Origin: Candidatus Hydrothermarchaeales archaeon
GTDB lineage: Archaea > Hydrothermarchaeota > Hydrothermarchaeia > Hydrothermarchaeales > SZUA-236
Direction: 5' to 3'
Assembly: GCA_036446635.1 (NCBI GenBank)
Contig: JAZFTJ010000033.1
Span: 1 to 24,950, forward strand
DNA length: 24,950 bases
Part shown: positions 1 to 21,937 of the stretch, piece by piece
How the letters are laid out: each line of letters starts with the position of its first letter
How positions within the stretch are numbered: the stretch's first letter is position 1
The notes under the pieces: generated by a model
What the model was told of the DNA's origin: nothing
Databases searched by the model: none
What the model saw: the letters and a program-made list of their open reading frames with translations, nothing else
Position numbers and translations under genes: made by a program

Positions 1-903
<903 letters not shown>

Positions 904-5702: not shown

Positions 5703-6068
5703 TCATGCCAGATCCTTTACGGTACTTATTACTTCTTTAATGTTAATGGGCTTTGTTAGGTGTCTGTCAGCATGAGCATAATCAAGGCTCTTCTCAATAC
5801 TCTCCTTACTTCTTCTAACAGAGAGCATCGAAACAGGGACACTCAACTTGGATTCCTTTATCCTCTTACATACCTCCCATCCGCTAATATCCGGCATTTC
5901 GATGTCAAGAAGAACTAGGTCAGGATTTATCTCCTCGATCCTCATGAGACATTCATTCCCGCTGGACAACTCAACTATGTCATACCCCTCTTTTTTCAAA
6001 GCAGTTTTTAGAATAAAATGAATGTCAGGCTCATCGTCAACGATCAATATCTTAACCACGCATATCAA
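5703..6068 (-). CDS. CheY-like response regulator receiver (single domain)
   Basis: ILIVDDEPDI...LVLLDIEMPDISGWEV...K receiver motifs, including the phospho-acceptor Asp context. Confidence 0.85.
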   Translation of the reverse strand: MICVVKILIVDDEPDIHFILKTALKKEGYDIVELSSGNECLMRIEEINPDLVLLDIEMPDISGWEVCKRIKESKLSVPVSMLSVRRSKESIEKSLDYAHADRHLTKPINIKEVISTVKDLA

Positions 6069-6071
6069 CTC

Positions 6072-7991
6072 CTATTTTTTTGTTCTTTTAGGCAGCTTCA
6101 CATTGAAAACGCTTCCGCCCCCTGGATTGTCTTCAACCCATACACTTCCATTATGTAGATCAACTATCCTATTCACAATGGCAAGACCCAAACCGGATCC
6201 TCTAACACCTTCTTTTGAAACTCGTTTGAATCTAAGGAAGATCTTCTCCTTATATTCGTCTGAAATACCTATGCCGTTATCTTTAACACTTATTATCCAC
6301 TCAGTGCCTGCATCCTTTAGATCGACGATGACCCTGCTGTTTTCTGGGCTGTACTTTATTGCGTTGGACACAATATTAAAAAACACATCTTTTATGAAAG
6401 GATTGACATAAGCAGGATATCCCCCCGTAACCGCATTTTCAATCGTTATTCCTTTTTCACTTGCCAAGCCATGTAAACTATCAACCGCGTCCTTGATTAT
6501 CTTAGACAGGTCAATTTTTTCAAACACAAAATCGTCGATAGAATCTACTCTCGCATATTCACTGGCGTCCTCAATCATTTCCTGAAGCGTCTTCGTATTT
6601 CTTTTTATCATTTGCAACTCTTCTTCTATCCCCCTATATGAATCGGTGTCTTCTATCAATTCCAATAGGTTGAGGATAATACCTACTGGATTGAGAAGGT
6701 CGTGTCTAATTATGTCAGTAAACAGGTCTTTAATCTGGTTAGAACGTTCAAGCTCCAGGGTATAGTTTTTAAGGTTTTGTTCCATCTTCTTCCTTTCAGT
6801 TATGTCTTGTGAAAGACTCAACAGTCCCACCGGATTACCCCGATCGTCTACTATGCTTCTTGTGCGCAAGTAGGTTGGAAAAACCTCCCCATTCTTCCGG
6901 ACATTGAGTAGCTCTCCTTCCCACCCCTCCTGTTTTAGCATTGCTTCATAAATCTCCTTATTTTTCTCTACAGTTATCTCTTTTGGCTGCAAAATCTTTG
7001 CATGCTTACCCATTACCTCCTCTGCTTTGTAACCATATGTCTCCTCAGCTGCCTTATTGAAGCTGATGATCTCACCTTTAAGATCTGTTGAAACAATACA
7101 ATATGGGGACGCTTCAATTAGTTTTTGAAGATACTCCCCAGATTTCCTGATCTCTTCTTCTAATCTAGCTTGTTCCGTGACATCCTCTAGTACAACGAGC
7201 AGCCCCTTCACCTGCCTTTTTTCATCTTTTAACGGGGTACATCTAGCAGATAGATATACAGTTTTACCGTAGAATGATGTGTACTCTTCATTATGTAATT
7301 CAAAAGCCTCGCCTTGCAATGCCTGTCTGAAAAGTTTGTCCCATCCTTTTGCCTTGATAGAAGGTAACTCCAGAACATTAAGCCCCAATGACTGATCCAT
7401 ACTTATTTCGCCCATCATCTTCAGATGCATCGGATTAGCTGATGTGATAACCCCGTTTTTATCCGTTGTGAAAATCCCTACAGGCGCGTTTTTAACGATA
7501 TTCTCATTGAACTCCTTTAACCGTTTAATCTCCTCTTCGGCCTTAATCACATGCCTGATATCTTTAGCTATTCCAACTGTCCCGATTGGGTTGCCCTTTC
7601 TATCCCTTAAAGGTGAGATGGTGAGGTTTATATCGACCAATTCCCCGGCGCTGTTATAGACCCTTGTCCTTTGGTTCCTTATCGTCTCCCCTTTCATTAC
7701 CCTCCTTTGCCACTCTCTTCTTCTATTCTTCAGCTCTGACGGATATAATATACTTATAGGTTTGCCGATAATATCCTCTGCTTTGTAGCCTAAGATTTCC
7801 TCAGAACCCCTGTTCCAACTGGTTATTTTTCTGTCTATATCTGTAGTTATAATGCAGTCAGCAGAGCCCTCAATGAGGCTTCTCAAGAATTCCTCAGTTT
7901 CACTCAACTTCATTGTTTTCTCTTCAACTTTCCGTTTTGATCGCCCGGAAAGTTTCTTCACTTCTTGCTCTAGTTTTTCTTTTTTCCCCAC
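6072..7991 (-). CDS. sensor histidine kinase with three PAS domains
   Basis: There are three PAS-like segments (GSADCIITTD..., APVGIFTTDKNG..., ASPYCIVSTDLKG...). The H-box is IIRHDLLNPVG. The HATPase_c G-boxes are DNGIGI and GSGLGLAIV...VWVEDNPGGGSVFNVKLP. Confidence 0.9.
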   Translation of the reverse strand: MGKKEKLEQEVKKLSGRSKRKVEEKTMKLSETEEFLRSLIEGSADCIITTDIDRKITSWNRGSEEILGYKAEDIIGKPISILYPSELKNRRREWQRRVMKGETIRNQRTRVYNSAGELVDINLTISPLRDRKGNPIGTVGIAKDIRHVIKAEEEIKRLKEFNENIVKNAPVGIFTTDKNGVITSANPMHLKMMGEISMDQSLGLNVLELPSIKAKGWDKLFRQALQGEAFELHNEEYTSFYGKTVYLSARCTPLKDEKRQVKGLLVVLEDVTEQARLEEEIRKSGEYLQKLIEASPYCIVSTDLKGEIISFNKAAEETYGYKAEEVMGKHAKILQPKEITVEKNKEIYEAMLKQEGWEGELLNVRKNGEVFPTYLRTRSIVDDRGNPVGLLSLSQDITERKKMEQNLKNYTLELERSNQIKDLFTDIIRHDLLNPVGIILNLLELIEDTDSYRGIEEELQMIKRNTKTLQEMIEDASEYARVDSIDDFVFEKIDLSKIIKDAVDSLHGLASEKGITIENAVTGGYPAYVNPFIKDVFFNIVSNAIKYSPENSRVIVDLKDAGTEWIISVKDNGIGISDEYKEKIFLRFKRVSKEGVRGSGLGLAIVNRIVDLHNGSVWVEDNPGGGSVFNVKLPKRTKK

Positions 7992-8006
7992 AAGAATCGC
8001 CCAAAT

Positions 8007-8405
8007 CTACTTGACATCTTTGGAGCTTTTCAAAACCTTTTTAATGGTCCCTAGCAGTTCTTCTTTGTGGAATGGTTTATCAATGTGGGCATCCGCCTTA
8101 GAATATTGAAAGCTCTTTATCTTGGAGCCAGCACTTGTCCTTACGGTAAACATGACAACAGGTATATGATTTGTTTCCTTGTCCTCCTTTATCTTTTTGC
8201 CGACCTCCCAACCGTCCAATGCCCCCATCATTATGTCTAATAGCACGAGGTCTGGTTTCTCTTCCATTATATTGTCCAGGCACTCTTTGCCACTCTTGGC
8301 CACCACCACTTCATAGCCCCCCCTCTCCAGCATCAGCTTCGTGGTAAATATTATATCCGACTCGTCATCCACGAGCATTATCTTGGCCATATGAAACTCC
8401 TTCAT
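8007..8405 (-). CDS. CheY-like response regulator receiver (single domain)
   Basis: IMLVDDESDI...LVLLDIMMGALDGWEV...K receiver motifs. The start is possibly the Met at ~8390. Confidence 0.85.
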   Translation of the reverse strand: MKEFHMAKIMLVDDESDIIFTTKLMLERGGYEVVVAKSGKECLDNIMEEKPDLVLLDIMMGALDGWEVGKKIKEDKETNHIPVVMFTVRTSAGSKIKSFQYSKADAHIDKPFHKEELLGTIKKVLKSSKDVK

Positions 8406-8470
8406 CCTTTCTTTTTACATATTATAGGGATTCCGATGTTTAAATATTATCTACTGAACAAAACTGTCAT

Positions 8471-9967
8471 TTACGTTACAGATTTTTCTATCGGAAGTAT
8501 AAAAATAAACTTACTCCCCTTCCCCAATTTGCTCTCGACCCAGATCTTGCCGCCATGGGCCTCGACCAGATCTTTGATGACCGAAAGCCCCAGACCAGTT
8601 CCACCGTACCTCCTCGTAGAGCCACTGTCCACTTGATAAAATCTATCGAAGACCTTCTCCAAACACTCTTTGGCAATCCCTATCCCGGTGTCTGTAACCC
8701 TGACCTCAACGAAATTCCCATTCTGCTTTGCTTTTATGACAACCTCCCCACTCTCCTTGTTGAACTTTATAGCATTAAGGAGTAGGTTGCGGAAGATGTG
8801 TTTCAATTCATTCAAATCGGCCTTTACCTTAGGCAAGCCCCCCTCCAGAGAAGTTTTAACTTCGATCTCGGACTTCAAAGCCATAGACTCTATATCTCTT
8901 CTGCACATTTCTATAACTTCTCCCAAGTCCAATCCTTTAAGATTTAATTTTAAGGTCCCCGATGTAAGCCCTCTCATGTCCACCAAATCGTCGATGACCT
9001 TATTTTGGCGGTCGAGGGCATTTAACCCCGTCGTAATAATCTCCTCTCGGTTCTCGATCTTTTTCTTCCTCAAAAGTTCAAGGGCATTCTCGCATATGGT
9101 CAATGGAGTGCGCAGCTCATGAGTTACACTGGAGAGGAGGTTATCCTTCATCTTGTCGAGGGTTTTAAGTTCATCATAGGCTCTTTTCAGTTCCCTATGT
9201 GCTTTTTTGACCTCTTCTTCCCTTCTTTTCCTTTCGGTGATGTCTGTGAAGACTGATAGAACCCCCTTACCCCTCCCGCTTTCAGTTATGGGGGTAGCGC
9301 TGATTATAATGGGTATCCTTCTCCCGTCTTTGTTTACTATGGCAACCTCATAGCTAATAGTTATCTCCTTTAACCTTTTTTCTGACTCTTCCTCCATCTT
9401 TTTTACATATTCTGGAGCGAATATCTCCTTCGAATGCTTTCCAATCAATTCACCTTCTGAATATCCCAAGAGCTCCTCGGTCTTCGGGTTAACAAAGGTG
9501 ATGATCCCGTTGGAGTCCTCGATTAGTATCCCCTCAGCCATGGACTGGACAATATTCTCGTTGAACTCTTTCAAACGTCTGTTTTCTATAATTAGCTGTT
9601 GCTTCTCGAGACCCTTCCTTATGTTTGCAATTACTTCTTCTATATTTAATGGCTTCAAAATGTAGGCATATGCCCCCTCATTTAAAGCCTCAACTGACGT
9701 CTGGAGTGAAGCATAAGCAGTGACTATTATCGCCACTGCATCCGGTTGCATCTCTTTGACTTTTTTCAATATTTCTGTGCCGCTGATGTCTGGAAGCTTT
9801 ATGTCTATTAAGGCTACATCGAAAAACTTTTCTTTTATCTTTTCTAAGCATTCTTCGCCATTTTTTGCTGTTTCGACTTTGTAGCCTTTCTCCTGAAGTA
9901 TATCTTTCAGCGTTTCGCGCGTCCCGAGATCGTCGTCAACTATCAGGATACTTATTTCCTCTGGCAT
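8471..9967 (-). CDS. hybrid REC-PAS-histidine kinase
   Basis: N-terminal receiver ([14 protein letters not shown]...[12 protein letters not shown]). A PAS segment follows ([24 protein letters not shown]). The H-box is THELRTPLT. The HATPase_c domain is DTGIGI...[32 protein letters not shown]. Confidence 0.9.
9911..9952. repeat. ~40-bp exact repeat, copy 1 (REC-domain N-terminus of the hybrid HK)
   Basis: gtttcgcgcgtcccgagatcgtcgtcaactatcaggatact is identical to 10339-10379. Confidence 0.8.
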
Positions 9968-10022
9968 AATCCCTCACAACATCCTTAAACATTTAATATC
10001 TATTTTATCTATCATTTGTATC

Positions 10023-10397
10023 CTACTTAGGCATTGCGCCTTCGATGAGCTTTATCGTCTTCTCCATATCCAAAGGTTTGTAGACAACGGCATATGCCCC
10101 TTCCCTCAAAGCTTCTGCTACGAGGGCTTCGTCAACGTAGGCTGTCATCATAATTATCGCCACCTCTGGGTATACTATCTTCTTGATCTCCCTAATAGTC
10201 TCTATGCCGTCTATTCCTATCATCTTATTATCCATAAGTATAACTTTAAAGAGCTCTCTCTTGAGTTTCGCAAGCGCTTCAATTCCGCTTTCTGCAGTAG
10301 TTACATTATATCCTTTCACAGTTAGGATATCAGTCAAGGTTTCGCGCGTCCCGAGATCGTCGTCAACTATCAGGATACTAGTTTTCCTTTCCTTCAT
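10023..10397 (-). CDS. CheY-like response regulator receiver (single domain)
   Basis: [14 protein letters not shown]...VILMDNKMIGIDG receiver motifs. The start overlaps the last ~20 nt of the upstream HK gene. Confidence 0.85.
   Translation of the reverse strand: MKERKTSILIVDDDLGTRETLTDILTVKGYNVTTAESGIEALAKLKRELFKVILMDNKMIGIDGIETIREIKKIVYPEVAIIMMTAYVDEALVAEALREGAYAVVYKPLDMEKTIKLIEGAMPK
10338..10379. repeat. ~40-bp exact repeat, copy 2 (REC-domain N-terminus of the RR 10023..10397)
   Basis: Identical string to copy 1. Both encode [14 protein letters not shown]. Confidence 0.8.
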
Positions 10398-12912
10398 CTT
10401 CCTCCACTTTCCTCATCGGTAGTTTAATGATAAAGGTTGCTCCCCCATCTACAACGCTCGTCACATCGATGTTGCCCCCATGCCCGTCAACGATTTGTTT
10501 ACAGATCACTAAACCCAAACCAATCCCTTTTGCCTTGGTGGTAAAGAGTGGTTCGAAGATCTTCTCTATATTCTCCTTCGGAATCCCTTTGCCGGTGTCC
10601 TCAAACTCTATCTCCACGGAGTTGCCCTTACTCTTGGTTCTGATAATCAATTTACCTCCATCGGGCATCGCATGAACAGCGTTTGAAATCATATTCAAGA
10701 ACACCCGCTGTAATTGTTCTTCATCTACCCTCATCAAGGGTAAATCGGTCAGATAAGTTTCCACTTTAACATCCTCATGTACCGATACCCGGGCCAATGT
10801 ATCCTTAATTATCGCATTGATGTTGGCTTCTCCAAAAGTGGGTTCTATCCCCCGTGAAAAGTCCAACAGGTCGGTGATGATTTTGTTGGAGGTATTTAGT
10901 TCCTTTTCTAGGATATTCAGGTGCTTCTTCACCTTTTCATCTTTTTCACCCAGGGTCATGTTTAGATAGTAGCCCACATTCTTGATCACTCCAAGGGGAT
11001 TTCTCAACTCGTGGCCAACACTCGCTGCCAGTTGCCCTATAGAAGCCAGCCTCTCTGACTTGACCAGTTGCTCTTGCGATTTTCTCAACTCCTCCATCTT
11101 ACTTTCAACTTCAGTACTGTAATATTTTAGAGACCGAATGGTCTCGTCCACTTCGGTGAACCCAACTCTAGCTATGAGCAAGGCTATGAACATGCCTACC
11201 GCCCAGAGCAACGTTACATACTCATTTGTTGTGAAACTAAAGTTCTGCAAAAATCTGATCTTGTAAAGAATCCCGAACCTCCCAACACCTTCGAGAAATA
11301 TGGGAAGAATGACCATAAATAGGAAGAGGCCGAAATAGTGCAGTTCTGGAATTCTAGTTGTTTGTACCGTTTTGTAGAGGGGATATAAAGTAAATATCGC
11401 CAAAAAGACGAAGACATAAAGTTGTATCCTCCCCCATATTACTAGGAGCTTTACATTCCATGGCGCTTGGGGCGGCTCCCTCTTCCCTTGCAGAGTTAAT
11501 GTCGCATCGTCGATGCCTTGAAGCACGGCACCGAGGTTTTCGATCGAGGGATTTCTCTTGGCATCTACAAATCTCTTTCTAATGGCCATGTAAAGTTCTG
11601 GGTCTTCGTCGGCAACTACCTCTCTGATCGCATTGAAAATCGCCAGTGCATGATCGACCTCTGAAAGTGCCAATCCAGGTTCCCCGCGCCCCATATATAT
11701 CTTAGCGGTTAATAGATAATCGCGGGTTAGCGCCAGTTGTGTTATTTCTTCCGAACCAATTCCCCCAAATTCTATGGTTCGCGCCAGCATGCTTATGCTG
11801 TGCCCCTGACCAAAACCCTCGTTGGCGGATCCATGAGAATCATCATTTACTGCTATGCTGAAACGATAGGTCTTACTGATATCGAACTGGACATCGTCTT
11901 CGTGCCCAGTCTGTAATTTTCTTTTAAATTCTAAATGCCACTTCCCGTCATAATAAACCCCTTTGGCGCTTATGTCTCTAGCACTTCCTGTCGGTTTTTC
12001 GGAGATGTATGCGGGCACTTTAAAGCCGATCGGAATACCTCTCCCATCGTTAAGTTTTGTCAGATTCGAAAATTCCACGGCCTCATCCCTAAAGATCTCC
12101 TCCATCGTGATGTGTTTCGCATCTTCGTCCCATACGCCAGGTTCATAATATCTCGGCCCGATGAAATTGCCTCTCTCATCGGCAATCGCGTTCTTTCTCT
12201 CCTCTACATAGTCCCCCGATGTTTCATCTAGCTTGTGTGAATGCCATGTCTTCTCGATCATAGAAGTCCTAGAAAAACCAGAATATATCTTCTCCCCGAT
12301 AACCACAGTATCGTCTAGGAATCCATCCTGCATATAGCCAGAGGGGTTGCCTTTCTCCGCCTTCCATTTCCAGTAATCAAGGCTTTCCTCCAGGGTATTG
12401 GTATGCATCCTATTTGCATGGCAAGTAATGGCGCATCCAGCTATATCGAAGCCCTCAACCGAGCCCCTTATGTTCCAGAAGATTGTGAACATATCCTCGG
12501 TATCTTTATTTGGGGGGTTCCAAGCAGTGCCATTATATCTCCAGAATAAAGCATCACTTTGGGTTGGATCCGGCCATATGATATATATATACACATAGTC
12601 ACGATCATATAATGCCTTCATCTCCACATCTACATCCCCGACCTTTCCATCCATCACTGGGATGAGCATTGTCTTTGTCTCATTCCACGAAGACTCCTTT
12701 GCCCGCCCGTCTATGATTATCGCTTCGTTTGTTTTCACCGCGCTTAATATCGTACTATATTCTTCTTCTGCCGCTGTAAGCGTTCCATTTACTATAAGTG
12801 CACTACCAATAAACACTACTATCAAAATGAGCGCCGCTTTTTGTTGTTCTTTGTTCATCCAGCTCACTTTTCTCCATTTTCGGTATTTCATATCTACATT
12901 TGGACCCCACAA
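10378..12912 (-). CDS. sensor histidine kinase with extracellular DOMON/CBM9-like domain bearing a CX3CH heme-c-type motif
   Basis: N-terminal TM segment (AALILIVVFIGSALIV). An extracellular domain of ~450 aa opens with IIIDGRAKESSWNETK (the IDG..DE..W hallmark of CBM9/DOMON/EB_dh-like heme domains). It contains GCAITCHANRMH (C-x3-C-H). Hydrophobic TM segments follow (YVFVFLAIFTLY, FLFMVILPIFL, LWAVGMFIALLIA). The H-box is SVGHELRNPLG. The HATPase_c domain is DTGKGI...GIGLGLVICKQIVDGHGGNIDVTSVVDGGATF. The alternative starts at Met8 and Met19 were not resolved. Confidence 0.85.
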   Translation of the reverse strand: MWGPNVDMKYRKWRKVSWMNKEQQKAALILIVVFIGSALIVNGTLTAAEEEYSTILSAVKTNEAIIIDGRAKESSWNETKTMLIPVMDGKVGDVDVEMKALYDRDYVYIYIIWPDPTQSDALFWRYNGTAWNPPNKDTEDMFTIFWNIRGSVEGFDIAGCAITCHANRMHTNTLEESLDYWKWKAEKGNPSGYMQDGFLDDTVVIGEKIYSGFSRTSMIEKTWHSHKLDETSGDYVEERKNAIADERGNFIGPRYYEPGVWDEDAKHITMEEIFRDEAVEFSNLTKLNDGRGIPIGFKVPAYISEKPTGSARDISAKGVYYDGKWHLEFKRKLQTGHEDDVQFDISKTYRFSIAVNDDSHGSANEGFGQGHSISMLARTIEFGGIGSEEITQLALTRDYLLTAKIYMGRGEPGLALSEVDHALAIFNAIREVVADEDPELYMAIRKRFVDAKRNPSIENLGAVLQGIDDATLTLQGKREPPQAPWNVKLLVIWGRIQLYVFVFLAIFTLYPLYKTVQTTRIPELHYFGLFLFMVILPIFLEGVGRFGILYKIRFLQNFSFTTNEYVTLLWAVGMFIALLIARVGFTEVDETIRSLKYYSTEVESKMEELRKSQEQLVKSERLASIGQLAASVGHELRNPLGVIKNVGYYLNMTLGEKDEKVKKHLNILEKELNTSNKIITDLLDFSRGIEPTFGEANINAIIKDTLARVSVHEDVKVETYLTDLPLMRVDEEQLQRVFLNMISNAVHAMPDGGKLIIRTKSKGNSVEIEFEDTGKGIPKENIEKIFEPLFTTKAKGIGLGLVICKQIVDGHGGNIDVTSVVDGGATFIIKLPMRKVEEDEGKEN

Positions 12913-13197
12913 CCTATACCTATTACGCCTATGAACTTAAAATAAGGTGTTTACACTTCCTCTTATCATGGAGCGCCCCTCGCACATACATATTTTCATT
13001 TTTTCATGTAAACAAAGGCTATTCTATTATATGATCCTTTGATCTCTCCTCCAAACCTCTTTTCTCTCCATTGATTGGAATTATACGTATTATACTTATA
13101 ATTTTTTCAAAACTTTCATTTCGTCCAGAAGGAAAGAATTCTTTTTTATGAAAATTATATAAAGAAGCACTGCCAATTTTTCGTAAGGTGAAAATCA
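12913..13197. promoter_or_regulatory. divergent intergenic promoter region (TCS operon leftward, stomatin rightward)
   Basis: 285-bp AT-rich non-coding gap between divergently oriented genes. Several TATA-like runs are present. No single promoter element could be pinned down from the sequence. Confidence 0.3.
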
Positions 13198-13968
13198 ATG
13201 CCGATAGGGACTTATATTGCCATACTCGTAATTTTGGTGATCTTGATACTTCTTCATATGTCGATATGGGTATTCAAAGAGTACGAGCGCGGGGTTCTCT
13301 TTAGGTTGGGGAGGTTGAAAGGTGCAAGAGGACCGGGCTTAGTCTTTATAATACCCTTTATAGATAATATCTTCATGGTAGATCTGAGGGTATTTACAGA
13401 AAATGTCTCGGCCCAAGACGTTATCACCAAAGACAATGTAACGGCCAGAGTCGATGCCGTTTTATACTTCTATGTAGTAGATCCGGTGAAATCCAAAGTA
13501 GAGGTGGAGGACTACTTGGCATCTACCACGCTGATATCTCAGACGACTTTGAGGGGCGTTATCGGACAGCATGAGTTGGATGAGCTGCTCGCGGAGAGGG
13601 ATAAGATCAATTATACTCTTCAAAAGATTATAGATTCACATACAGAACCCTGGGGAGTGAAGGTATCAGCCGTTGAGATCAAGGACGTCGAGCTTCCAGA
13701 AACTATGAAGAGGGCCATGGCAAGACAAGCCGAGGCAGAGAGGGAGAGAAGGGCAAAGGTGATAAACGCCCTAGGGGAATTCCAAGCGTCAGAAAAACTC
13801 GCGCAAGCAGCAGAGATCATTGGACCCCATCCAATGGCGCTCCAATTGAGATATCTGCAATCCCTAGTCGAGGTCTCATCAGAACAGAGCTCAGCGATCA
13901 TATTCCCGGTGCCGATAGACCTGTTCACACCGTTCTTGGAAGCAAATAAGCGTAAGAAAAAGGAGTGA
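13198..13968 (+). CDS. SPFH/band-7 (stomatin-like) membrane protein
   Basis: N-terminal TM helix. VFKEYERGVLFRLGRL...GPGLVFIIPFIDNIFMVDLRV...TKDNV matches the stomatin/prohibitin core. A C-terminal coiled coil is present. Confidence 0.85.
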   Translation: MPIGTYIAILVILVILILLHMSIWVFKEYERGVLFRLGRLKGARGPGLVFIIPFIDNIFMVDLRVFTENVSAQDVITKDNVTARVDAVLYFYVVDPVKSKVEVEDYLASTTLISQTTLRGVIGQHELDELLAERDKINYTLQKIIDSHTEPWGVKVSAVEIKDVELPETMKRAMARQAEAERERRAKVINALGEFQASEKLAQAAEIIGPHPMALQLRYLQSLVEVSSEQSSAIIFPVPIDLFTPFLEANKRKKKE

Positions 13969-14205
13969 TGCCCCGCTTCTTTGAGTTTTTGATTCGATGC
14001 AAATTTTATGTTCTCTCCCTTCTAAAATTGTTTTTCCTATTTTAAACTATTCTGATTTTTTGACTGTCCTGGCGAAGCTTTTGGAGATGAATTGCCAACT
14101 TAAAGAGAGGGGATTAAATAATTTTAAAAGACGGTTCAGTGCAGTACTCATGCTAGTAAATCATATATAAGAGTATGAAAGAGTATGTGCTAAAATAATT
14201 ATGGA

Positions 14206-15717
14206 GTGAAATCCGTGCAAGAAGAGGAGAGGAGAAGAATCTCACTGTTGCTAATAGCCGCATTTGTTGTAGCAACGATTGCATTTGTAATCATAACACC
14301 GGGATTCAGTATATTAGAGCGGTTTACGGGTTTGGGAAAGGCAGCCCCAACCACCACTGATGGGGCTAATTATGTCGGTTCATTAAGATGTAAGGAATGC
14401 CATGAAGGAACATACGCCGGTTGGAAAACAACATTGCATCCACATATGGTCCAAGAACTTGGTGAAAATGTCGTCCTTGGCGATTTCATGGAGAACAACA
14501 GAATTTCATTTAAGGATAAGACCACCACGATGTCAACAAAGGACGGAGAATATTATATAACCACCACCGGCTCTGATGGCGAAGAGCACACCTATGAAGT
14601 GCTCTATACCATCGGTAGTGCCTGGAAGCAGAGATATCTTACGAAGTTTGACAACGGAGAATTCCATATACTCCCTGTTCAATGGAATATTAGGGAGCAA
14701 AAGTGGCAGGACTATAAAGGTCTGGAAAAATACGGCTACGACGATCCCAAAAATTATTGGAGCAGTAAAGGGAGGATCTGGCAGTATAAATGTGCTGGTT
14801 GTCACACCACAGGTTTCCAAATAAACTACGATGAAGCCACGGATACCTATGCCTCAACTTGGATAGATAACGGAGTCGGGTGTGAAGCTTGCCACGGACC
14901 GGGAAGCAACCACATATTGGCTGATACTGCCTACAAGACAGATACGATCGTAAACCCAGCCAAAATCCCTCAAACAGATATAGGGGTCATGATCTGTGGA
15001 TCATGTCATTCCGATGGCAGCTCAGCCGTCGATAAAAGATATGGCTACCCGGTTGGATATAAGCCAGGTATGAACTTGATACCCCTGTACGATCCTGTTA
15101 CTCCTGAGAAGGATACTCCGAAGCATTTTTGGCCTAGTGGAGACTCCAGAAAACACGGTCAACAGTATCTAGACTGGAAGACGAGCGAGCACGCAAGGGC
15201 AGGGATAGCATGCTGGGACTGCCATACCCTGCATTCTCAAGGCGAGGGCAAGTTCCAGACAAAACTAGCAGGTACATCGCTGTGCAAGGCATGCCACGGT
15301 GAACCTAGGAGGGTTCCAGGCCTCGCTGGGTTGACCCACACCATCATGGACTTCGGAAACTGTGTCCGCTGCCACATGCCCCTGACAGCAAAAAGCATGA
15401 ATCCGGGGGATATTAGCAGCCATAGGTTCAAGGTCATTAAACCAGAGGCCAGCATAAAACTCCTCCTTGACAAAGCCGCACAGAAGGATGAAACGGTCCT
15501 GGGCTTCTACGGCCTCGAGGCCAAAGATGTAGAAGGCCTTAACAAGACCGAAGTGGAAGAGTTGCTCAAGAACAAGGCCCTAGAAGCTATGCACGCAGGA
15601 AAAAGCATGGAGGACCTGCTCTGGAATGTGCAGCCAAACTCATGCAACGCATGTCACAACCACGTTTCACCGTGGATACTTCAAGAATACCTCGAACCTC
15701 CGCGTCTGCATGATTAA
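14206..15717 (+). CDS. octaheme c-type cytochrome, membrane-anchored/secreted
   Basis: GTG start. N-terminal hydrophobic anchor (LLLIAAFVVATIAFVII). Eight canonical CxxCH motifs were counted directly: CKECH, CAGCH, CEACH, CGSCH, CWDCH, CKACH, CVRCH, CNACH. Confidence 0.9.
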   Translation: MKSVQEEERRRISLLLIAAFVVATIAFVIITPGFSILERFTGLGKAAPTTTDGANYVGSLRCKECHEGTYAGWKTTLHPHMVQELGENVVLGDFMENNRISFKDKTTTMSTKDGEYYITTTGSDGEEHTYEVLYTIGSAWKQRYLTKFDNGEFHILPVQWNIREQKWQDYKGLEKYGYDDPKNYWSSKGRIWQYKCAGCHTTGFQINYDEATDTYASTWIDNGVGCEACHGPGSNHILADTAYKTDTIVNPAKIPQTDIGVMICGSCHSDGSSAVDKRYGYPVGYKPGMNLIPLYDPVTPEKDTPKHFWPSGDSRKHGQQYLDWKTSEHARAGIACWDCHTLHSQGEGKFQTKLAGTSLCKACHGEPRRVPGLAGLTHTIMDFGNCVRCHMPLTAKSMNPGDISSHRFKVIKPEASIKLLLDKAAQKDETVLGFYGLEAKDVEGLNKTEVEELLKNKALEAMHAGKSMEDLLWNVQPNSCNACHNHVSPWILQEYLEPPRLHD

Positions 15718-15744
15718 TAAAATTCTACAAGGAGAACAGGACCA

Positions 15745-16308
15745 ATGAGAAAGACGCTAAAGGGAGGGATTCTAATACTCCTCATTTTAGGCTTCATATC
15801 TCTGAGCCATGTCGTGGAGGCTCAGGAAGTCCAGCAGAGGGACATGGAGAAATACAGGAGTGAGAGGTGGAAGAGCCCCCTACCCCCTGAGGCTAAGACG
15901 AGGTATAAGCTTGCATACACATTTGAATATGCGAACAGAACCTATCAAGAGTCCCCCCATGGTAAAGCGGCCGCCCTCGGAAAAGAGGGGGTCCCGACTT
16001 GTACGGATTGTCACGGCATGGTGGACTGGATGTATTTCCTTCCACAGAGCAATCCAAATTCGCCCATCAATCCCAAGAATAGACCTGATATATGCGCGAG
16101 GGATGATTGTCATGGTGTTAAATTGACCAATGCCGGCAAGGGATCGATGCATGGAAGTGATATATACTCTCTAGGCCCAACCTCCGTGAATGGGCTGATA
16201 AACTTCTTCTACAAAATACTTATCTCTGCAGTGATAGGATTCTTCGTATTCTTTGAGATTTTGGACTTCACAAGAAAGCATGGTAAGAGTAGAAAAGGGG
16301 GCGTGTGA
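15745..16308 (+). CDS. dihaem c-type cytochrome with C-terminal membrane anchor
   Basis: N-terminal signal-like segment (ILILLILGFISLSHVVEA). Heme motifs are CTDCH (CxxCH) and CARDDCH (Cx4CH). A C-terminal TM helix is present (ILISAVIGFFVFFEILDF). Confidence 0.75.
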   Translation: MRKTLKGGILILLILGFISLSHVVEAQEVQQRDMEKYRSERWKSPLPPEAKTRYKLAYTFEYANRTYQESPHGKAAALGKEGVPTCTDCHGMVDWMYFLPQSNPNSPINPKNRPDICARDDCHGVKLTNAGKGSMHGSDIYSLGPTSVNGLINFFYKILISAVIGFFVFFEILDFTRKHGKSRKGGV

Positions 16309-16309
16309 A

Positions 16310-16984
16310 ATGGCCGAAGAGGAATTCTTAAGATTCACCGTCTTTCAGAGGATACAACACATCCTTTTGACCCTATCCTTTTTCGTATTGGTATTGACAG
16401 GATTCCCCCTGAAATATGCCCATACCTCGTGGGCACGAAGCATAGTTGATGTGCTTGGGGGCCCTGATAAGAGGGGATTATATCATCGGATTGCTGCAGT
16501 AGTATTCATCGGCACTGGTCTTATACACGTGATATACTATACCCTGATCGACATAGGAAAGAAAGACATAATGCCGAAGAGGAAAGATTTCGACGATGCT
16601 ATGCAACACATCAGATACAATTTAAGGATGACTGAGGAAATGCCGAAAATGGGACGCTATACTTGGGACCAAAAGTTCGATTACTGGGCCGGAGCTGTCG
16701 GTTCTCTCATAGTAGTTGTAACAGGGGCTATGATGTGGTTCACGTTCGATATGACATTGAAGGTACTGCCGCTACAGTTTGTCAATTATGCCCGGCTGAT
16801 ACATGGGTGGGAGGCGATCCTGGCGTTTTCTTCTGTTATAATAATACATCTATATGCGGTGATTCTGAATCCAGACGTATTTCCAATGGCAAAGCATTGG
16901 ATAACTGGGACTCTGACTAGGGAGCAAATGGAGCACGAGCATCCCTTGGAGTTGGAAGAACTGATAAAGAAAGAAGAGACATAG
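16310..16984 (+). CDS. membrane b-type cytochrome (Ni/Fe-hydrogenase/FdnI-type cytochrome b family)
   Basis: The ATG lies 2 nt after the upstream stop; the tracked ORF start at 16253 overlaps the previous gene. RIQHILLTLSFFVLVLTGFPLKYAH, followed by further TM helices with conserved His (IAAVVFIGTGLIHVIYY; AILAFSSVIIIHLYAVIL), is typical of di-heme cytochrome b membrane anchors. Confidence 0.75.
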   Translation: MAEEEFLRFTVFQRIQHILLTLSFFVLVLTGFPLKYAHTSWARSIVDVLGGPDKRGLYHRIAAVVFIGTGLIHVIYYTLIDIGKKDIMPKRKDFDDAMQHIRYNLRMTEEMPKMGRYTWDQKFDYWAGAVGSLIVVVTGAMMWFTFDMTLKVLPLQFVNYARLIHGWEAILAFSSVIIIHLYAVILNPDVFPMAKHWITGTLTREQMEHEHPLELEELIKKEET

Positions 16985-17595
16985 ACCTCATCACTTCTGA
17001 TATGTCAACTGTCCCCAACTGAAGTTGCGGACGTGTGCCGAGGAATGATAAGCATGCTACAAGCATTCAATACCGATCCCGTCATGCACACGAACCCCCC
17101 CCGGTTGACCGCCAGGAAGCTGAGCGATGGCGCCAGCCCTGATGGCGATGTTGACAGAGGTGTTTCTGTTGGAATTCGTTATGTTTTCCGTACTGAGGCA
17201 TTTGAAAGTTGCCCCACCTCTTTTTCTCCATCCTTCTACACGCCATGTCTTGCTCCCTCCTCACCTTTTTGCCCTTCCAGTCGACCGGAAAATATATTCT
17301 GCTAGAGTTCCCACTCGGCATTGAAGTTTTCTATATCACCTTATATCCAAGCATCTCTATTTTCATGGGCTTCTCTACAAGTTTTTCTTTTCTTATACAG
17401 ATCATTGTAGATGAAAGAGAAGGCAAAAGTTATTCTGGATTAATTATACACCACAGCCTATAACATTAAAAGTCCGTCGGATTGCCCAATCAAGGAAAGG
17501 AGGCTCTACTACACCCCCAAGATACGTCGTTTTTTCCAGGTCGTATTGGAGGTCGACCTTCTTGACATCTCCTTCTTTCAATCTTTAACTCAGGA

Positions 17596-17872
17596 GGATA
17601 TAACATGCTTATTGGTTTGCCGATAATATCCTCAGCATCATAGCCAAAAATCTCCTCCGCCCCTCGGCTCTAACCAGTAATTATCCTCTCGGCATCTGTA
17701 ATGATAATGGAGTCAGTGGAGCCCTCGAAGAGACTTTTAAGTAGGTTCTCTGTTCCTCTTAGTTCAAATCCTTTTACCTTTTGCTATGATCCTGAGGAAC
17801 GACCATTCAACTCTTCTGTATCATTTTGCCCCATAAGAATCGCCCAAACTTACTTGGTCTCCGCGGATTTCT
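17596..17872 (-). pseudogene. decayed fragment homologous to the N-terminal PAS region of the HK at 7738..7991
   Basis: The nucleotide stretch is visibly alignable to 7738-8005 (e.g. ggtttgccgataatatcctc; ataagaatcgcccaaa), with indels. No intact ORF spans it. Confidence 0.6.
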
Positions 17873-18222
17873 TCAAAACCCGGTTACGGTATCTAGCAAT
17901 TCTTCTCTGCTGAATGGTTTATCAATTTGGGCATCTGCCTTGGAATATTCAAAGCTCTTTATCTTGGAGTCATCACTAGTCCTCACGGTGAACATCACAA
18001 CAGCTATATGGCGTGTTTCATCGCCTTCTTTTATCTTCCTGCCTACCTCCCAGCCGTCAATCTTACGCATCATGATGTCCAAAAGCACAAGGTCAGGCTT
18101 CTCTTTCATTAGCCTCTCGAGACACTCTTTGCCACCACCACTTCATAATTCTCTCGCTCAAGCATCATCTTAGTAGTAAATATTATGTCTGGCTCGTCAT
18201 CCACGAGCATTATCTTGGTCAT
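17873..18222 (-). pseudogene. frameshifted duplicate of the response regulator at 8007..8405
   Basis: The 78-aa ORF (17873..18109) is closely similar in protein sequence to the C-terminal two-thirds of the 8007..8405 RR. The upstream part aligns at nucleotide level (ctctttgcca...ccaccacttcata; gtcatccacgagcattatcttgg) but lacks a 10-bp segment present in the intact copy (ctcttggcca). This breaks the frame. Confidence 0.7.
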
Positions 18223-18521
18223 AAATCTCTCCTCATACTCTATCTTCTATGATATTAATATGTAGTTTATGTTTTGGTAGGTATTTAATTGTACCGATAT
18301 AGTGTTTGTGATGGCCTTTGTGTAAGAGAACACTCAAGTGAAAACACCGTAGTCGTGCATTAAGGAAAAACAGAAATATCCGACGTTTATTTACACAGAA
18401 TTTAAAAAGTGGCAAAATCATGTATAAGCAAAGCTTACCACAAATTTAAATACAATAAAAAACGAGATCATACAACCGTAATAGAGGTTATAACAAAAGA
18501 ATACAGCAAGGGAGAAATAGG

Positions 18522-18590
18522 ATGAAGATCAGAAAGCTGAAAAAGAAAATAAGATACGGAACATGCAAATGCTCCAAGAGCTGCATGTAG
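18522..18590 (+). CDS. candidate small Cys-rich peptide (22 aa), possible RiPP precursor
   Basis: Manual translation gives MKIRKLKKKIRYGTCKCSKSCM then TAG. It has a highly basic N-terminal half and a C-terminal C-x-C-x3-C cluster. A GGGAG lies ~8 nt upstream of the ATG. The ORF is below the 60-aa cutoff of the ORF track. It sits 200 nt upstream of, and on the same strand as, an RRE-rSAM-SPASM enzyme. Confidence 0.35.
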   Translation: MKIRKLKKKIRYGTCKCSKSCM

Positions 18591-18660
18591 AATACGAACA
18601 GAAAACGCACAGGATGGAGGGCGTATAGAGCCCTGAAGATTAAATAGCACTATATTTAAA

Positions 18661-18798
18661 ATGTTATCGAAGGAACTTAGAAACCGAATCTGTTCAAAAT
18701 GCGAATTTTACACGGAGGGGGATGAATTAGAGTGCCACGCATTCAAAGTAGCTAAAAAGCTGGTCTCAGAAGGGAAGATAACTTTGGATGAGTTGTGA
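18661..18798 (+). CDS. candidate small peptide (45 aa) with a CxxC...CH motif, translationally coupled to the rSAM enzyme
   Basis: Manual translation gives MLSKELRNRICSKCEFYTEGDELECHAFKVAKKLVSEGKITLDEL then TGA. The TGA (18796-18798) shares its A with the ATG (18798-18800) of the rSAM gene. Confidence 0.4.
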   Translation: MLSKELRNRICSKCEFYTEGDELECHAFKVAKKLVSEGKITLDEL

Positions 18799-19976
18799 TG
18801 CATCCGAAATTAAAAAACTCTGCTTTAAAAAATATTGAAACCAACGTACTCTATAATTTCGTTGCAGACGAGCTATATGAGCTGGACGACGAATCATTCA
18901 ACTTCTTGGGCTATTGCACGGGAAGGAACAGTTTTTCAGAGATCATCGCAAAGTCAGGCTGTGATGAAAAGGAAGCAAGAAGTCTAATAGGATATCTTCA
19001 AGAAGAGAGATGCATCGAGTTTAAAAAAGACGATAATGCGGATGAAAAGTTCCAATTCCATGACAAAGTTACTCCATCACTTAGATATCTCCAGCTCCAC
19101 ATAACCGAGAAGTGCAATCTCGATTGCAAGCACTGCTATCTGGGCACTAAAGGACAAAAAGAACTTAGCCTAGATGTCATCGACAAAGTGATAAGAGAAT
19201 TTAGCCAAACAGGATTAAAGCTATTAATCACAGGCGGCGAACCCCTACTACACAGCAATGTCTGGGAAGTACTCAAAGCCGCTAAAAAACACCCCATAAG
19301 AGTAGAAGTTCTTTCAAACGGCACCCTGATAACTGAAGACCGAGCAAAAAAATTATCGAAGTACATAAACGGAATCCAAATAAGCATAGACGGACTCGAG
19401 AGGGGACATGATTCATTAAGAGGAAAAGGAGCATTTAAAAAAGCACTAAAAGGAGTAAAGGCTGCAAAAAAATACCTCAAAGTCACCGCAGCAACGATGA
19501 TCCATCAAGCCAACATAGACGAGTTTCCAGAGCTTGAGAAATTGATGAAAAACCTAGAAATTGACGAGTGGAGCATAGACCTACCCTCTGAAGCAGGAAA
19601 TATGGCAGCGAATTCAGACCTAAGCGTTGATTTTGAAACAGCCTCCAAGATCTTCAGAAGATACGGTTACAGCACAGGGATGCATCTCGGAGACAAAGGA
19701 TACTCATGCGGATCCCACATATGCTCAGTAAACGTCTTGGGCAACGTATCAAAATGCGGCTTTTTTACAGACACAGTTGGGAATACCAAAAAAGAAAACC
19801 TGATAGATTGCTGGAAAAAGATCATCGACAATTATACACCACGGCTTGAAGAACTAAAATGCAAAGAATGCAGATCACTAGAAGACTGTAGAGGCGGCTG
19901 CAGATACAGGGCATTAAAAGCAGACAGTTTCTTTGGAAAAGACCCCTTCATGTGCCATCTCTATCTCGAAGTCTAA
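18798..19976 (+). CDS. radical SAM / SPASM-domain peptide-modifying enzyme with N-terminal PqqD-like RRE
   Basis: The N-terminal ~85 aa (NVLYNFVADELYELDDESFNFLGYCTGRNSFSEIIAKSGCDEKEARSLIGYLQEERCIE) follow the PqqD/RRE pattern. The rSAM core has C-x3-C-x2-C (CNLDCKHC) plus LLITGGEPLL. The C-terminal SPASM cysteines are CGSHIC...KCGFF...CKECRSLEDCRGGCRYRA. The tracked ORF begins at GTG 18795; the ATG at 18798 is the likelier start. Confidence 0.85.
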   Translation: MHPKLKNSALKNIETNVLYNFVADELYELDDESFNFLGYCTGRNSFSEIIAKSGCDEKEARSLIGYLQEERCIEFKKDDNADEKFQFHDKVTPSLRYLQLHITEKCNLDCKHCYLGTKGQKELSLDVIDKVIREFSQTGLKLLITGGEPLLHSNVWEVLKAAKKHPIRVEVLSNGTLITEDRAKKLSKYINGIQISIDGLERGHDSLRGKGAFKKALKGVKAAKKYLKVTAATMIHQANIDEFPELEKLMKNLEIDEWSIDLPSEAGNMAANSDLSVDFETASKIFRRYGYSTGMHLGDKGYSCGSHICSVNVLGNVSKCGFFTDTVGNTKKENLIDCWKKIIDNYTPRLEELKCKECRSLEDCRGGCRYRALKADSFFGKDPFMCHLYLEV

Positions 19977-19993: not shown

Positions 19994-20575
19994 TCATTCT
20001 CCGTTGAAGTCTCCGGCTGCCATGGTGTATATGGCGTTGCCGGATGTTGGTAGTACGTTTTGTATTGTTTGTGGTTGTGTTAGTCCGTCTGTTCCTGTTG
20101 CGTGGTAGAATACGTTTCCATCGTTTGTGGTGTAGATTAGTTCGTCTTTGCGAATTTCTACTTCAGGCGGGGGGGGCGTGGTTGTTGGAGGGGCTGTTGT
20201 TGGTGCTGTTGTTGTAGTGGGTGCTGTTGTTGTAGTGGGTGCTGTTGTTGTGGGGGTTGTTGTGGTTGTTGGAGGGGCTGTTGTTGGTGCAGGTGTTGTT
20301 GGTGCTGTTGTTGTTGGCGTTGGTGTGGTTGTGGGTAAGGGGCTTTCAGTGGGCAGGTTTAGGGGATCTGGGTCTTTGGCGTCGTTGATACCGTCTCCAT
20401 CTGTATCAGGGTTATTCGGGTTAGTGCCCATGGCCAGTTCCTCTGCATCACTTAATCCATCTTTGTCGCTGTCTATCTTGCTTTGACGTGTTGAAGGTGT
20501 AATGCAGCCAGAGAGAATCACCAGGACTAACAAAAGACCTATTATCGTCTTTATCTTCATCACCCTATAACCCAC
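19994..20575 (-). CDS. lipoprotein with DxDxDG Ca-binding (thrombospondin-type-3/dockerin-like) motifs and a Thr/Pro-rich linker
   Basis: Signal peptide with a lipobox-like LSGC (MKIKTIIGLLLVLVILSGC). DSDKDGLSDAEE and DTDGDGINDAKDPD are Ca-binding-type motifs. A ~70-aa PTTTAPTT low-complexity linker is followed by a ~55-aa C-terminal domain. Confidence 0.7.
   Translation of the reverse strand: MGYRVMKIKTIIGLLLVLVILSGCITPSTRQSKIDSDKDGLSDAEELAMGTNPNNPDTDGDGINDAKDPDPLNLPTESPLPTTTPTPTTTAPTTPAPTTAPPTTTTTPTTTAPTTTTAPTTTTAPTTAPPTTTPPPPEVEIRKDELIYTTNDGNVFYHATGTDGLTQPQTIQNVLPTSGNAIYTMAAGDFNGE
20190..20345. repeat. imperfect tandem nucleotide repeats (~21-bp unit gtgggtgctgttgttgtagtg and variants) encoding the Thr/Pro linker
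   Basis: Directly visible repeated units: ggtgctgttgttgtagtgggtgctgttgttgtagtgggtgctgttgttgtggg. Confidence 0.8.
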
Positions 20576-20599: not shown

Positions 20600-21937
20600 T
20601 TATTCCTGAGAAGATAACGCGCCCTCATGGATTTTTATACCTTGCCCCATAAGATCTGAAGCCAGTGTTTCGATATCTTTTAGCAAAGTTTCTATTCTTT
20701 TCTCTCTTTCAGATCTTTCTTTGTCAATGTCTACTTCTTCTTTTTCAAGATCTTCTAGGCTTTCTTCGATCCCTCTCATCTTTTTTTGAAATCCCTCTAT
20801 TTCTGTAGAAATTTTAAGATCGGAAAGTTTGTCGATTAGGGACTTTTCTTTTCTGTTTATCTCCCCATCCTTCCCCCACATCTCTTTACAGTTTTTTTCT
20901 AAAAATTGTATCCTGTTCGCCATTTTGCTCTTTTCTTTGGCCTTTAGGTGTAGCTCTCCGCTTTGGATCGATTCTTTTGCTCCCTTTAGGATATTTAAAA
21001 GCGCCGGATTTCTTATATCCTCTAGGAGAAACGTTTGGTAAGGATGATCTATATAATCTCCACAGCGGCCTAGGTCTTCTTTTTTAAGTTGATAGGTCCC
21101 TTTTTCCGCTAACCTTCTGAATTTTTTGAAAACCCTCTTGAGAGGATGCAGCTGATTGTATATCTGTCCCTTCAATCTTGCCCTCTCTTCTTTCAGCGCT
21201 TCAACTTCTTTTTGTTTTGAAAGAAATTGTTGGAAAGCATCGCTTTTTTCTAAAGTTTTTAGCTTTTTTTCCAAGGAGGTTTTCTGTCTTTTCAATTTCT
21301 TTCTTTTATCCTTCAACTCTTTTTTCGTAGTCGTCGTTTCCAATTTCTTTTCTTTGTTGGTTTTTATTTCTCTTATATTTGAAGAGATATCTTCTAAGGT
21401 GGCAAGGTTTTCTTCTTTTTCCTCAATGATCTCTTTGAGTTTGTTTGAGAGGTCGATGAGGGAATTCAGTTCAGTCCCAAGCATCAGCATCTCCTCCCTG
21501 TAGCCGAATGCCACATGCCTACCAGGGCCGCGTTGGAAGCTGCCGATACTTTTTAACGAGTTTACAAATGATCTTTGAAACGATAATAGGTTTTCATAAT
21601 CCTGGAATTCTTTGGGCTTAATGTGGCGGAGAGCTTCCCTCATGCCTTTCACAAATATGGGCTTTGCGGTCTTAACGGGTTTGTACATCCGCTTTTCGAT
21701 CTCTTCGGAGAATTTTTTCTCATCTATCTTTTTTAAGATCTTGACAGCATCATCTCTAACTTCCTCTATCTCCTTGGTTATCGGGTTGCATTCTTCAACC
21801 CCCCCCTCCTCTTCTCTCTGTATTTCATTCTCTACCCAGGATTCAAGTTCATCAAGACCCATAGATCGAGCGATTTCTGCCTCCTCTTTCTTTTCAAAGA
21901 CATCCTTTAACTTTTCAAATATGCCCAAGGCCGCCAC
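20600..21937 (-). CDS. large coiled-coil protein, hypothetical
   Basis: 445 aa. Extended E/K/L-rich heptad-like segments (KKELKDKRKKLKRQKTSLEKKLKTLEK...). No enzymatic motif was recognised. Confidence 0.55.
   Translation of the reverse strand: MAALGIFEKLKDVFEKKEEAEIARSMGLDELESWVENEIQREEEGGVEECNPITKEIEEVRDDAVKILKKIDEKKFSEEIEKRMYKPVKTAKPIFVKGMREALRHIKPKEFQDYENLLSFQRSFVNSLKSIGSFQRGPGRHVAFGYREEMLMLGTELNSLIDLSNKLKEIIEEKEENLATLEDISSNIREIKTNKEKKLETTTTKKELKDKRKKLKRQKTSLEKKLKTLEKSDAFQQFLSKQKEVEALKEERARLKGQIYNQLHPLKRVFKKFRRLAEKGTYQLKKEDLGRCGDYIDHPYQTFLLEDIRNPALLNILKGAKESIQSGELHLKAKEKSKMANRIQFLEKNCKEMWGKDGEINRKEKSLIDKLSDLKISTEIEGFQKKMRGIEESLEDLEKEEVDIDKERSEREKRIETLLKDIETLASDLMGQGIKIHEGALSSQE

Follow-up and report, generated by a model that had tools for sequence, protein, structure and literature searches.

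What might a histidine kinase sense when the part of it that faces outward carries a haem-type cysteine motif? The question is raised by a reverse-strand gene in a 24,950-nucleotide stretch of DNA from a Candidatus Hydrothermarchaeales archaeon (assembly GCA_036446635.1, contig JAZFTJ010000033.1, positions 1 to 24,950; the whole stretch is called the window below). A preliminary description of this DNA had read the open reading frame (ORF) at 10378-12912 as a histidine kinase with sensor and kinase core in one polypeptide. The present analysis confirms that reading, since EB_dh, HisKA and HATPase_c domains were all found in the same ORF. It also suggests that the EB_dh domain very probably binds a covalent haem c outside the membrane, and that extracytoplasmic redox sensing is the most likely function of the sensor.

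Domain architecture and topology of the kinase

Residues are numbered here on the 844-aa mechanical ORF (10378..12912, reverse strand), which opens with TTG at 12912. The likely start of the protein is the ATG at 12858 (MNKEQQK...), 18 codons into the ORF. This codon was preferred because an identical 826-aa kinase annotated on NCBI GCA_044232495.1 and the homologue P0001 (88% identical) both start there. The nearest named relatives of the kinase come from metagenome-assembled genomes (MAGs) of Candidatus Hydrothermarchaeales. The features of the gene are as follows.

10378..12858, reverse strand: sensor histidine kinase gene, 826 aa from the ATG at 12858
12778..12834, reverse strand: N-terminal hydrophobic segment, residues 27-45 (Kyte-Doolittle 2.44), Lys-rich before and acidic after
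11758..12771, reverse strand: EB_dh/DOMON-like beta-sandwich domain, residues ~48-385, predicted extracytoplasmic
12418..12435, reverse strand: CAITCH motif (C160, C164, H165), predicted covalent haem c attachment site and proximal His ligand
11800..11802, reverse strand: His371 in a G-x-G-H-S loop invariant in sensor-clade alignments A1 and A2, predicted second axial haem ligand
11449..11754, reverse strand: membrane-proximal four-helix bundle, residues ~387-488
11161..11448, reverse strand: three transmembrane helices (TM2-TM4) with a conserved outer loop, LQNFSFTTxE, from hydropathy and homologue alignment
10852..11037, reverse strand: HisKA dimerisation/phospho-acceptor domain (Pfam)
11011..11013, reverse strand: H-box His634 (SVGHELRNPL)
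10411..10725, reverse strand: HATPase_c catalytic domain (Pfam)

Pfam placed EB_dh (PF09459) at residues 78-361 (E=2.1e-27; 97.1 bits against a gathering cut-off of 33.3), HisKA at residues 626-687 (E=3e-10) and HATPase_c at residues 730-834 (E=1e-27), while NCBIfam recognised the kinase core alone. On these matches the kinase is assigned to the Pfam EB_dh family. With the H-box His, HATPase_c and an adjoining receiver all present, it is also classed as a class I (HisKA) histidine kinase. The sensor had been described as DOMON/CBM9-like. Its strong match to EB_dh, a family of the DOMON superfamily, and its matching fold bear out the general affinity, but the DOMON and CBM9_1 models themselves remained below threshold (E=0.005 for DOMON; 15.3 bits against a cut-off of 23.4 for CBM9_1, E=0.02, covering residues 67-117 only). 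By this Pfam score, under the cut-off, the kinase is not a member of the CBM9 carbohydrate-binding module family. The IDG..E..W signature on which the description had been based was found as IIIDGRAKESSW, and its D, G and W are conserved at 97-99% in the wider family.

A hydropathy scan detected four hydrophobic segments (9-27, 471-493, 508-526 and 548-566 in the numbering of the 826-aa product). The N-terminal one may anchor the protein in the membrane or be a Sec-type signal peptide. Four spans would leave the ~440-residue region between TM1 and TM2 (residues ~46-488) outside and the kinase inside; the sensor region is thus predicted to be extracytoplasmic, where it had been placed before. 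There are three Cys in the whole kinase, and CAITCH holds the only two that lie outside the membrane. From the EB_dh domain the chain continues into a periplasmic-type four-helix bundle that leads directly to the first of the three membrane helices (TM2-TM4); on the cytoplasmic side lie a coiled coil, HisKA and HATPase_c. The outer loop LQNFSFTT(S/N)E and an EG(V/I)GR motif in the third membrane helix (~11161-11448) rank with the best-conserved stretches in the sensor clade, and no Pfam family spans either of them.

In a fold search, the beta-sandwich of the outside domain agreed with the fold of EbdC and NxrC, and the helical part resembled ligand-binding four-helix-bundle sensors, including NarQ and McpN. 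When the PDB was searched by sequence, NxrC was the sole match, and a weak one (E=3.6e-4 with the profile); EbdC was not reached.

The CX3CH motif and the predicted haem pocket

A C-x2-4-C-H motif is not expected in this protein by chance (4e-4 per permutation of the kinase; found in 9 of 20,000 shuffles). Conservation of CX3CH across orthologues is a question on which the earlier proposal of a haem-type motif depended, and the motif proved to be strongly conserved. A word-indexed search recovered 16 close homologues, of which 15 cover the position; every one of these has the motif, in the forms CAITCH, CAISCH, CAMLCH and CGMLCH. When 1.84 billion representatives were searched with a profile of the outside region, 1659 relatives came out at E<=1e-3, of which 201 reached E<=1e-30. 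In nearly all of the best 150 each domain copy has one C-x3-C-H, and this holds also where two to four copies stand in tandem. Among 189 profile-aligned domain copies the first Cys is conserved in 97%, the second in 100% and the His in 99.5%; the five exceptions have either a single-Cys form (G/A/P-x3-C-H) or C-K. This pattern is that of a haem c attachment site rather than of a disulfide, because the His is so highly conserved and the single-Cys variants keep C-H. The motif had been called rare, which is true in general, but within this branch of EB_dh it is the rule and not an oddity of one gene. C-x3-C-H thus marks out a large c-type branch within EB_dh, and the kinase sensor, which has both CAITCH and G-x-G-H371-S, is placed in that branch by its motifs.

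The second conserved loop follows a strand with the pattern F-x-x-A-x-x-D-N. Across the family a His occurs 2-16 residues past the conserved D-N in 150 of 174 copies, compared with 39 of 174 in a control window. In most of the 24 copies without a His there, its place in the loop is taken by Met (GMT or TM) or Lys (SDKY or SNKY). Such swapping of His, Met and Lys within one loop has the look of an axial haem ligand position. The haem b of NxrC is coordinated by Met155 and Lys305, 'as in EBDH' (PMC8387239). HMMER alignment of the sensor with NxrC pairs VNLWHWKAD (162-170) of NxrC with LDYWKWKAE (178-186) of the sensor, and the NxrC strand ending in WNGD297 with AVNDD358. By ungapped extension of these alignments, Met155 would fall on sensor residue 171, six past His165 and two past the conserved Met169, and Lys305 on residue 366, five before His371. 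From the loop swapping and this mapping together we infer a six-coordinate His165/His371 haem c in the pocket where EbdC and NxrC hold haem b. Met169 (CAITCH-x3-M; Met in 65% of the family) was considered as the sixth ligand and rejected on inferred geometry, because a residue four positions from the proximal His would be unable to reach the opposite face of the haem.

Seven large proteins (P0040, P0073, P0095, P0047, P0049, P0125 and P0141) have two to four tandem C-x3-C-H EB_dh domains with Met (GMT/TM) in the second-ligand loop. Their sequences suggest that some extracellular carriers form a sub-branch with His/Met ligation and a higher potential.

The rest of the c-type EB_dh family consists of stand-alone proteins of 320-400 aa and of large secreted proteins, the latter fused to MtrC-like, cytochrome c7, class I cytochrome, PKD, CARDB, fn3 or Por_Secre_tail domains. 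Judged by these architectures, most of the wider family would be extracellular electron-transfer proteins. An EB_dh Pfam match was obtained for 10 of 10 sensor-clade relatives scanned and for 65 of 66 longer relatives. As a complete unit, with EB_dh, bundle and three membrane helices, the outside module forms about 20 clusters at 50% identity and is joined to a variety of outputs: HisKA-HATPase, PAS-HisKA, GAF-HisKA, HisKA_3, hybrid kinases with two REC domains, archaeal DUF835, or a bare coiled coil. It was found at 15 loci among 185,579 species-representative genomes, with up to three paralogues per genome. The hosts are archaeal MAGs (Hydrothermarchaeales/-ota, Archaeon BMS3Abin16, 'Methanobacteriota' SZUA-236 and Thermoplasmata), and the sole non-archaeal locus is a 3-kb contig binned as Desulfobacterales. 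The sensor module is therefore almost confined to Hydrothermarchaeota-like archaea. The outside domain had no match on plasmids by tblastn. Most simply, this archaeal lineage would have taken over a domain that carries electrons outside the cell and made a sensor of it.

Many close relatives (P0002-P0011 and loci L004 and L005; 623-665 aa) have the whole outside module and the three membrane helices, followed by a short coiled coil and no kinase domain. In another Hydrothermarchaeales MAG (L003, 12479-15266), the orthologue is followed ~2 kb downstream by another EB_dh kinase, 54% identical, which has a REC to itself; the two are tandem sensor paralogues.

Genomic context and candidate signals

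The kinase leads a six-gene operon on one strand, in which the gaps between genes range from -20 to 65 nt. Its five further members are listed below.

10023..10397, reverse strand: stand-alone REC, overlapping the kinase stop by 20 nt
8471-9967, reverse strand: REC-PAS-HisKA-HATPase protein
8007-8405, reverse strand: REC
6072-7991, reverse strand: 3xPAS-HisKA-HATPase protein
5703-6068, reverse strand: REC

The overlapping REC is the probable cognate partner of the kinase. The kinase-REC pairing was kept at the orthologous loci L002 and L003, and also with the paralogue in L003. The set at 5703-10397 thus comprises two cytoplasmic PAS kinases, of which one carries a REC at its N-terminus, and three free-standing RECs; an output domain is absent from all of them. 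The set has the appearance of a multi-kinase relay, with a final target encoded outside it. Upstream of the kinase, a cluster of four genes is transcribed in the opposite direction.

12859..13197: divergent intergenic region of about 340 bp between the kinase operon and the SPFH-cytochrome cluster
13198..16984, forward strand: four-gene divergent cluster
13198-13968, forward strand: SPFH/Band-7 protein
14206-15717, forward strand: multihaem cytochrome with 8 CXXCH
15745-16308, forward strand: small, C-terminally membrane-anchored dihaem protein (CXXCH and CX4CH)
~16310-16984, forward strand: dihaem-b-type cytochrome b, Ni_hydr_CYTB family

The kinase had been said to head an operon beside a multihaem cytochrome cluster, and both parts of that arrangement were observed. 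The start of the cytochrome b ORF is probably an ATG near 16310 and not the TTG at 16253. By its genes, the divergent cluster resembles a quinol-linked module that would carry electrons across the membrane or out of it. The cluster is kept beside the orthologous kinase in L002 and L003, which at 82-91% identity is weak evidence; more telling is that in L010 and L014 unrelated five-haem cytochromes stand beside paralogous sensors of 42-46% identity. It has been reported that Hydrothermarchaeota MAGs encode multihaem cytochromes with CXXCH or CXXXCH motifs, and extracellular electron transfer has been proposed for them (PMC6759336).

We propose the following chain of events. Cys160 and Cys164 would be thioether-bonded to one haem c, with His165 as the proximal and His371 as the distal ligand. 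Extracellular redox partners (multihaem cytochromes, soluble mediators or minerals) would oxidise or reduce this haem, and the change of redox state would shift the two loops that bind it and perhaps also the ligation by the distal His. By way of the four-helix bundle and the membrane helices this shift would reach the kinase core and switch autophosphorylation at His634, from which the phosphoryl group would move to the overlapping stand-alone REC and then into the downstream REC-PAS-kinase relay. It may be speculated that the target is the divergent cytochrome/cytochrome b cluster, which is the weakest link of the chain. Taken as a whole, a kinase with an outward EB_dh haem c sensor and a redox-driven relay to receivers is the best explanation, and one that we put slightly on the probable side.

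Several observations weigh against this proposal. No receiver of the kinase operon has a DNA-binding output domain. The AlphaFold2 model is moderate (mean predicted local distance difference test score, pLDDT, 62), and both predicted haem loops (model residues 103-123 and 311-329) have the lowest confidence in it (pLDDT <50), as may be expected when the cofactor is absent from the prediction. The positions given above for the NxrC ligands are ungapped extrapolations from HMMER alignments and not a residue-level superposition. Linkage to multihaem cytochromes was detected at only 5 of the 15 loci, three of which are close orthologues, and no such cytochrome was found at the six other loci with usable flanks. 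A covalent haem also presupposes that CX3CH is matured by an archaeal cytochrome c machinery; indirect support for this would come from the genes of the 8-haem cytochrome and the CXXCH/CX4CH protein, 1.3 kb from the kinase, and from the multihaem cytochromes of published Hydrothermarchaeota MAGs.

The same covalent haem could instead serve a gas or small-ligand sensor, in which nitric oxide (NO), CO, O2 or sulfide displaces the distal His. It has been reported that haem-c Cache domains fused to signalling modules act as NO sensors, while the stand-alone ones look redox-related (PMC12889525, preprint); ligand switching accompanies signalling in GSU0582/GSU0935; and a nitric oxide reductase is encoded in Hydrothermarchaeota MAGs (PMC6759336). 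The invariant second His, however, predicts a six-coordinate, low-spin His/His haem, which would favour redox sensing over simple gas binding. The wider EB_dh family resembles electron carriers and not ligand binders, and the neighbours of the kinase are cytochromes and not NO-detoxifying enzymes. We judge a gas sensor to be rather unlikely. The preferred redox reading is itself open to a more specific form: an archaeal sensor of the extracellular redox state, found only in Hydrothermarchaeota-like archaea, whose haem c swaps electrons directly with outer multihaem cytochromes or minerals and whose multi-kinase relay tunes the neighbouring electron-transfer machinery. This form we offer tentatively, as a possibility that is more doubtful than the general one.

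Two further explanations take the signal away from the haem. The four-helix bundle could sense a small anion, as in NarX, NarQ and McpN, leaving the haem domain an accessory that is modulatory or transfers electrons apart from signalling. This would fit the match of the helical part to the ligand-binding bundles of NarQ and McpN and the AlphaFold2 model, in which the bundle region has the highest confidence; we nevertheless consider it improbable. Lastly, the domain could be a haem-free, CBM9-like carbohydrate- or surface-binding module with the two Cys in a structural disulfide. A disulfide would not explain why the His after the second Cys is 99.5% conserved or why single-Cys variants keep C-H, and the second loop alternates between His, Met and Lys, which are typical axial ligands of haem. 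With EB_dh family members fused to multihaem cytochromes and CBM9_1 scoring 15.3 bits against its cut-off of 23.4, a haem-free module appears very improbable. The interpretation of the domain as a haem sensor is supported as far as sequence analysis reaches.

The remainder of the window holds these features.

1-902, reverse strand: archaeal small-subunit ribosomal RNA (rRNA) gene, 5' 908 nt, cut by the window edge (RF01959, 918 bits)
17873-18109, reverse strand: 78-aa ORF resembling the C-terminal two-thirds of a receiver domain (…DLVLLDIMM…)
18795-19976: radical SAM protein with a Cys-rich C-terminus
19994-20575: protein with a bacterial TSP3 repeat
20600-21937: 445-aa ORF with no Pfam match
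22019-24724, reverse strand: 901-aa protein whose C-terminal 480 residues match ATP-dependent phosphoenolpyruvate carboxykinase

The rRNA gene accounts for the GC-rich first kilobase and shows the host of the contig to be an archaeon. The 78-aa ORF is possibly a truncated or decayed REC gene, and the stretch around it (~17000-18800) is poor in genes. The first ~380 residues of the 901-aa protein had no Pfam match.

Relation to known systems and implications

EbdC (PDB 2IVF chain C) and NxrC (PDB 7B04 chain C), gamma subunits of type II dimethyl sulfoxide (DMSO)-reductase-family enzymes, belong to Pfam EB_dh like the kinase sensor. They are soluble molybdoenzyme subunits that hold a non-covalent, high-potential haem b through Met and Lys. 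The kinase sensor differs from them in having C-x3-C-H and a loop His, ~70 extra inserted residues and a tether to a kinase. Because the ligand loops carry C-x3-C-H and His, and no molybdopterin or iron-sulfur subunit genes were found among the annotated genes of the window, the kinase is placed by sequence outside the haem b subgroup of EB_dh (EbdC, NxrC, SerC, DdhC).

P. stutzeri NirB is presumably a dihaem cytochrome c-552, which would fit the InterPro name 'cytochrome c-552/DMSO reductase-like haem-binding domain'. Comparable with the sensor by motif are this protein and the EbdC-like Dsui_0143 (Azospira, PF09459): both have been described as carrying CXXCH plus an 'atypical CWXXCH' (PMC3884062), that is, an EB_dh domain with an atypical C-x3-C-H, of the same c-type branch as the kinase sensor. 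They differ from the kinase in that they carry electrons in the periplasm, have a further haem bound at CXXCH and lack a signalling output. PcrS of the perchlorate island was considered as a possible EB_dh kinase and rejected; the PF09459 protein there is the carrier Dsui_0143.

A comparable layout, in which an outside haem c is followed by membrane helices and a cytoplasmic transmitter, is found in DcrA (Desulfovibrio), GSU0582/GSU0935 (Geobacter) and the haem-Cache proteins (DUF3365/Tll0287), which sense redox potential or NO. These are bacterial proteins, mostly chemoreceptors, with a PAS-like/Cache fold, CXXCH and a His/Met or five-coordinate haem, whereas the kinase combines EB_dh with a four-helix bundle, CX3CH, a predicted His/His haem and an archaeal host. 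Its outside region had no Pfam match to PAS or Cache. By analogy the kinase may work like the PAS/Cache haem c sensors, without being a member of that group. In the four-helix-bundle kinases LytS-N/XylFII (PDB 5XSD), NarQ and QseE, the bundle reads out a partner domain. The partner of LytS is a separate protein; the haem domain of the present kinase is fused in cis, and three membrane helices follow its bundle compared with one in LytS-type kinases.

To our knowledge, the outward-facing haem c sensors described so far are limited to a few bacterial proteins of PAS or Cache type. A 2007 survey of DOMON domains reportedly included fusions to signalling domains, and CDD has a model called 'CBM9_like_HisKa'. 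Computational work has already pointed to DOMON-like domains joined to histidine kinases. Our literature search found no paper on an EB_dh- or DOMON-type sensor kinase, and none joining a CX3CH/CXXXCH motif with DOMON or ethylbenzene dehydrogenase. The main text of a census of archaeal two-component systems does not mention EB_dh, DOMON or cytochrome sensor domains (PMC5847659). Homologues are named 'ethylbenzene dehydrogenase-related protein' by the NCBI pipeline. With the domain already recognised by annotation and its logic preceded in bacteria, the surprise is moderate.

If the proposal is true, EB_dh would be a third, unrelated fold among outward haem c sensors, and the first candidate of any kind in archaea. 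In the more specific form of the redox reading, the sensor fold and its signal would be new to two-component systems. A c-type EB_dh electron-carrier domain would have been recruited as a sensor module with many different outputs, in an uncultured lineage suspected of extracellular electron transfer at hydrothermal sites. As the outside domain is a single self-contained unit, the sensing of extracellular redox conditions by archaea would become testable.

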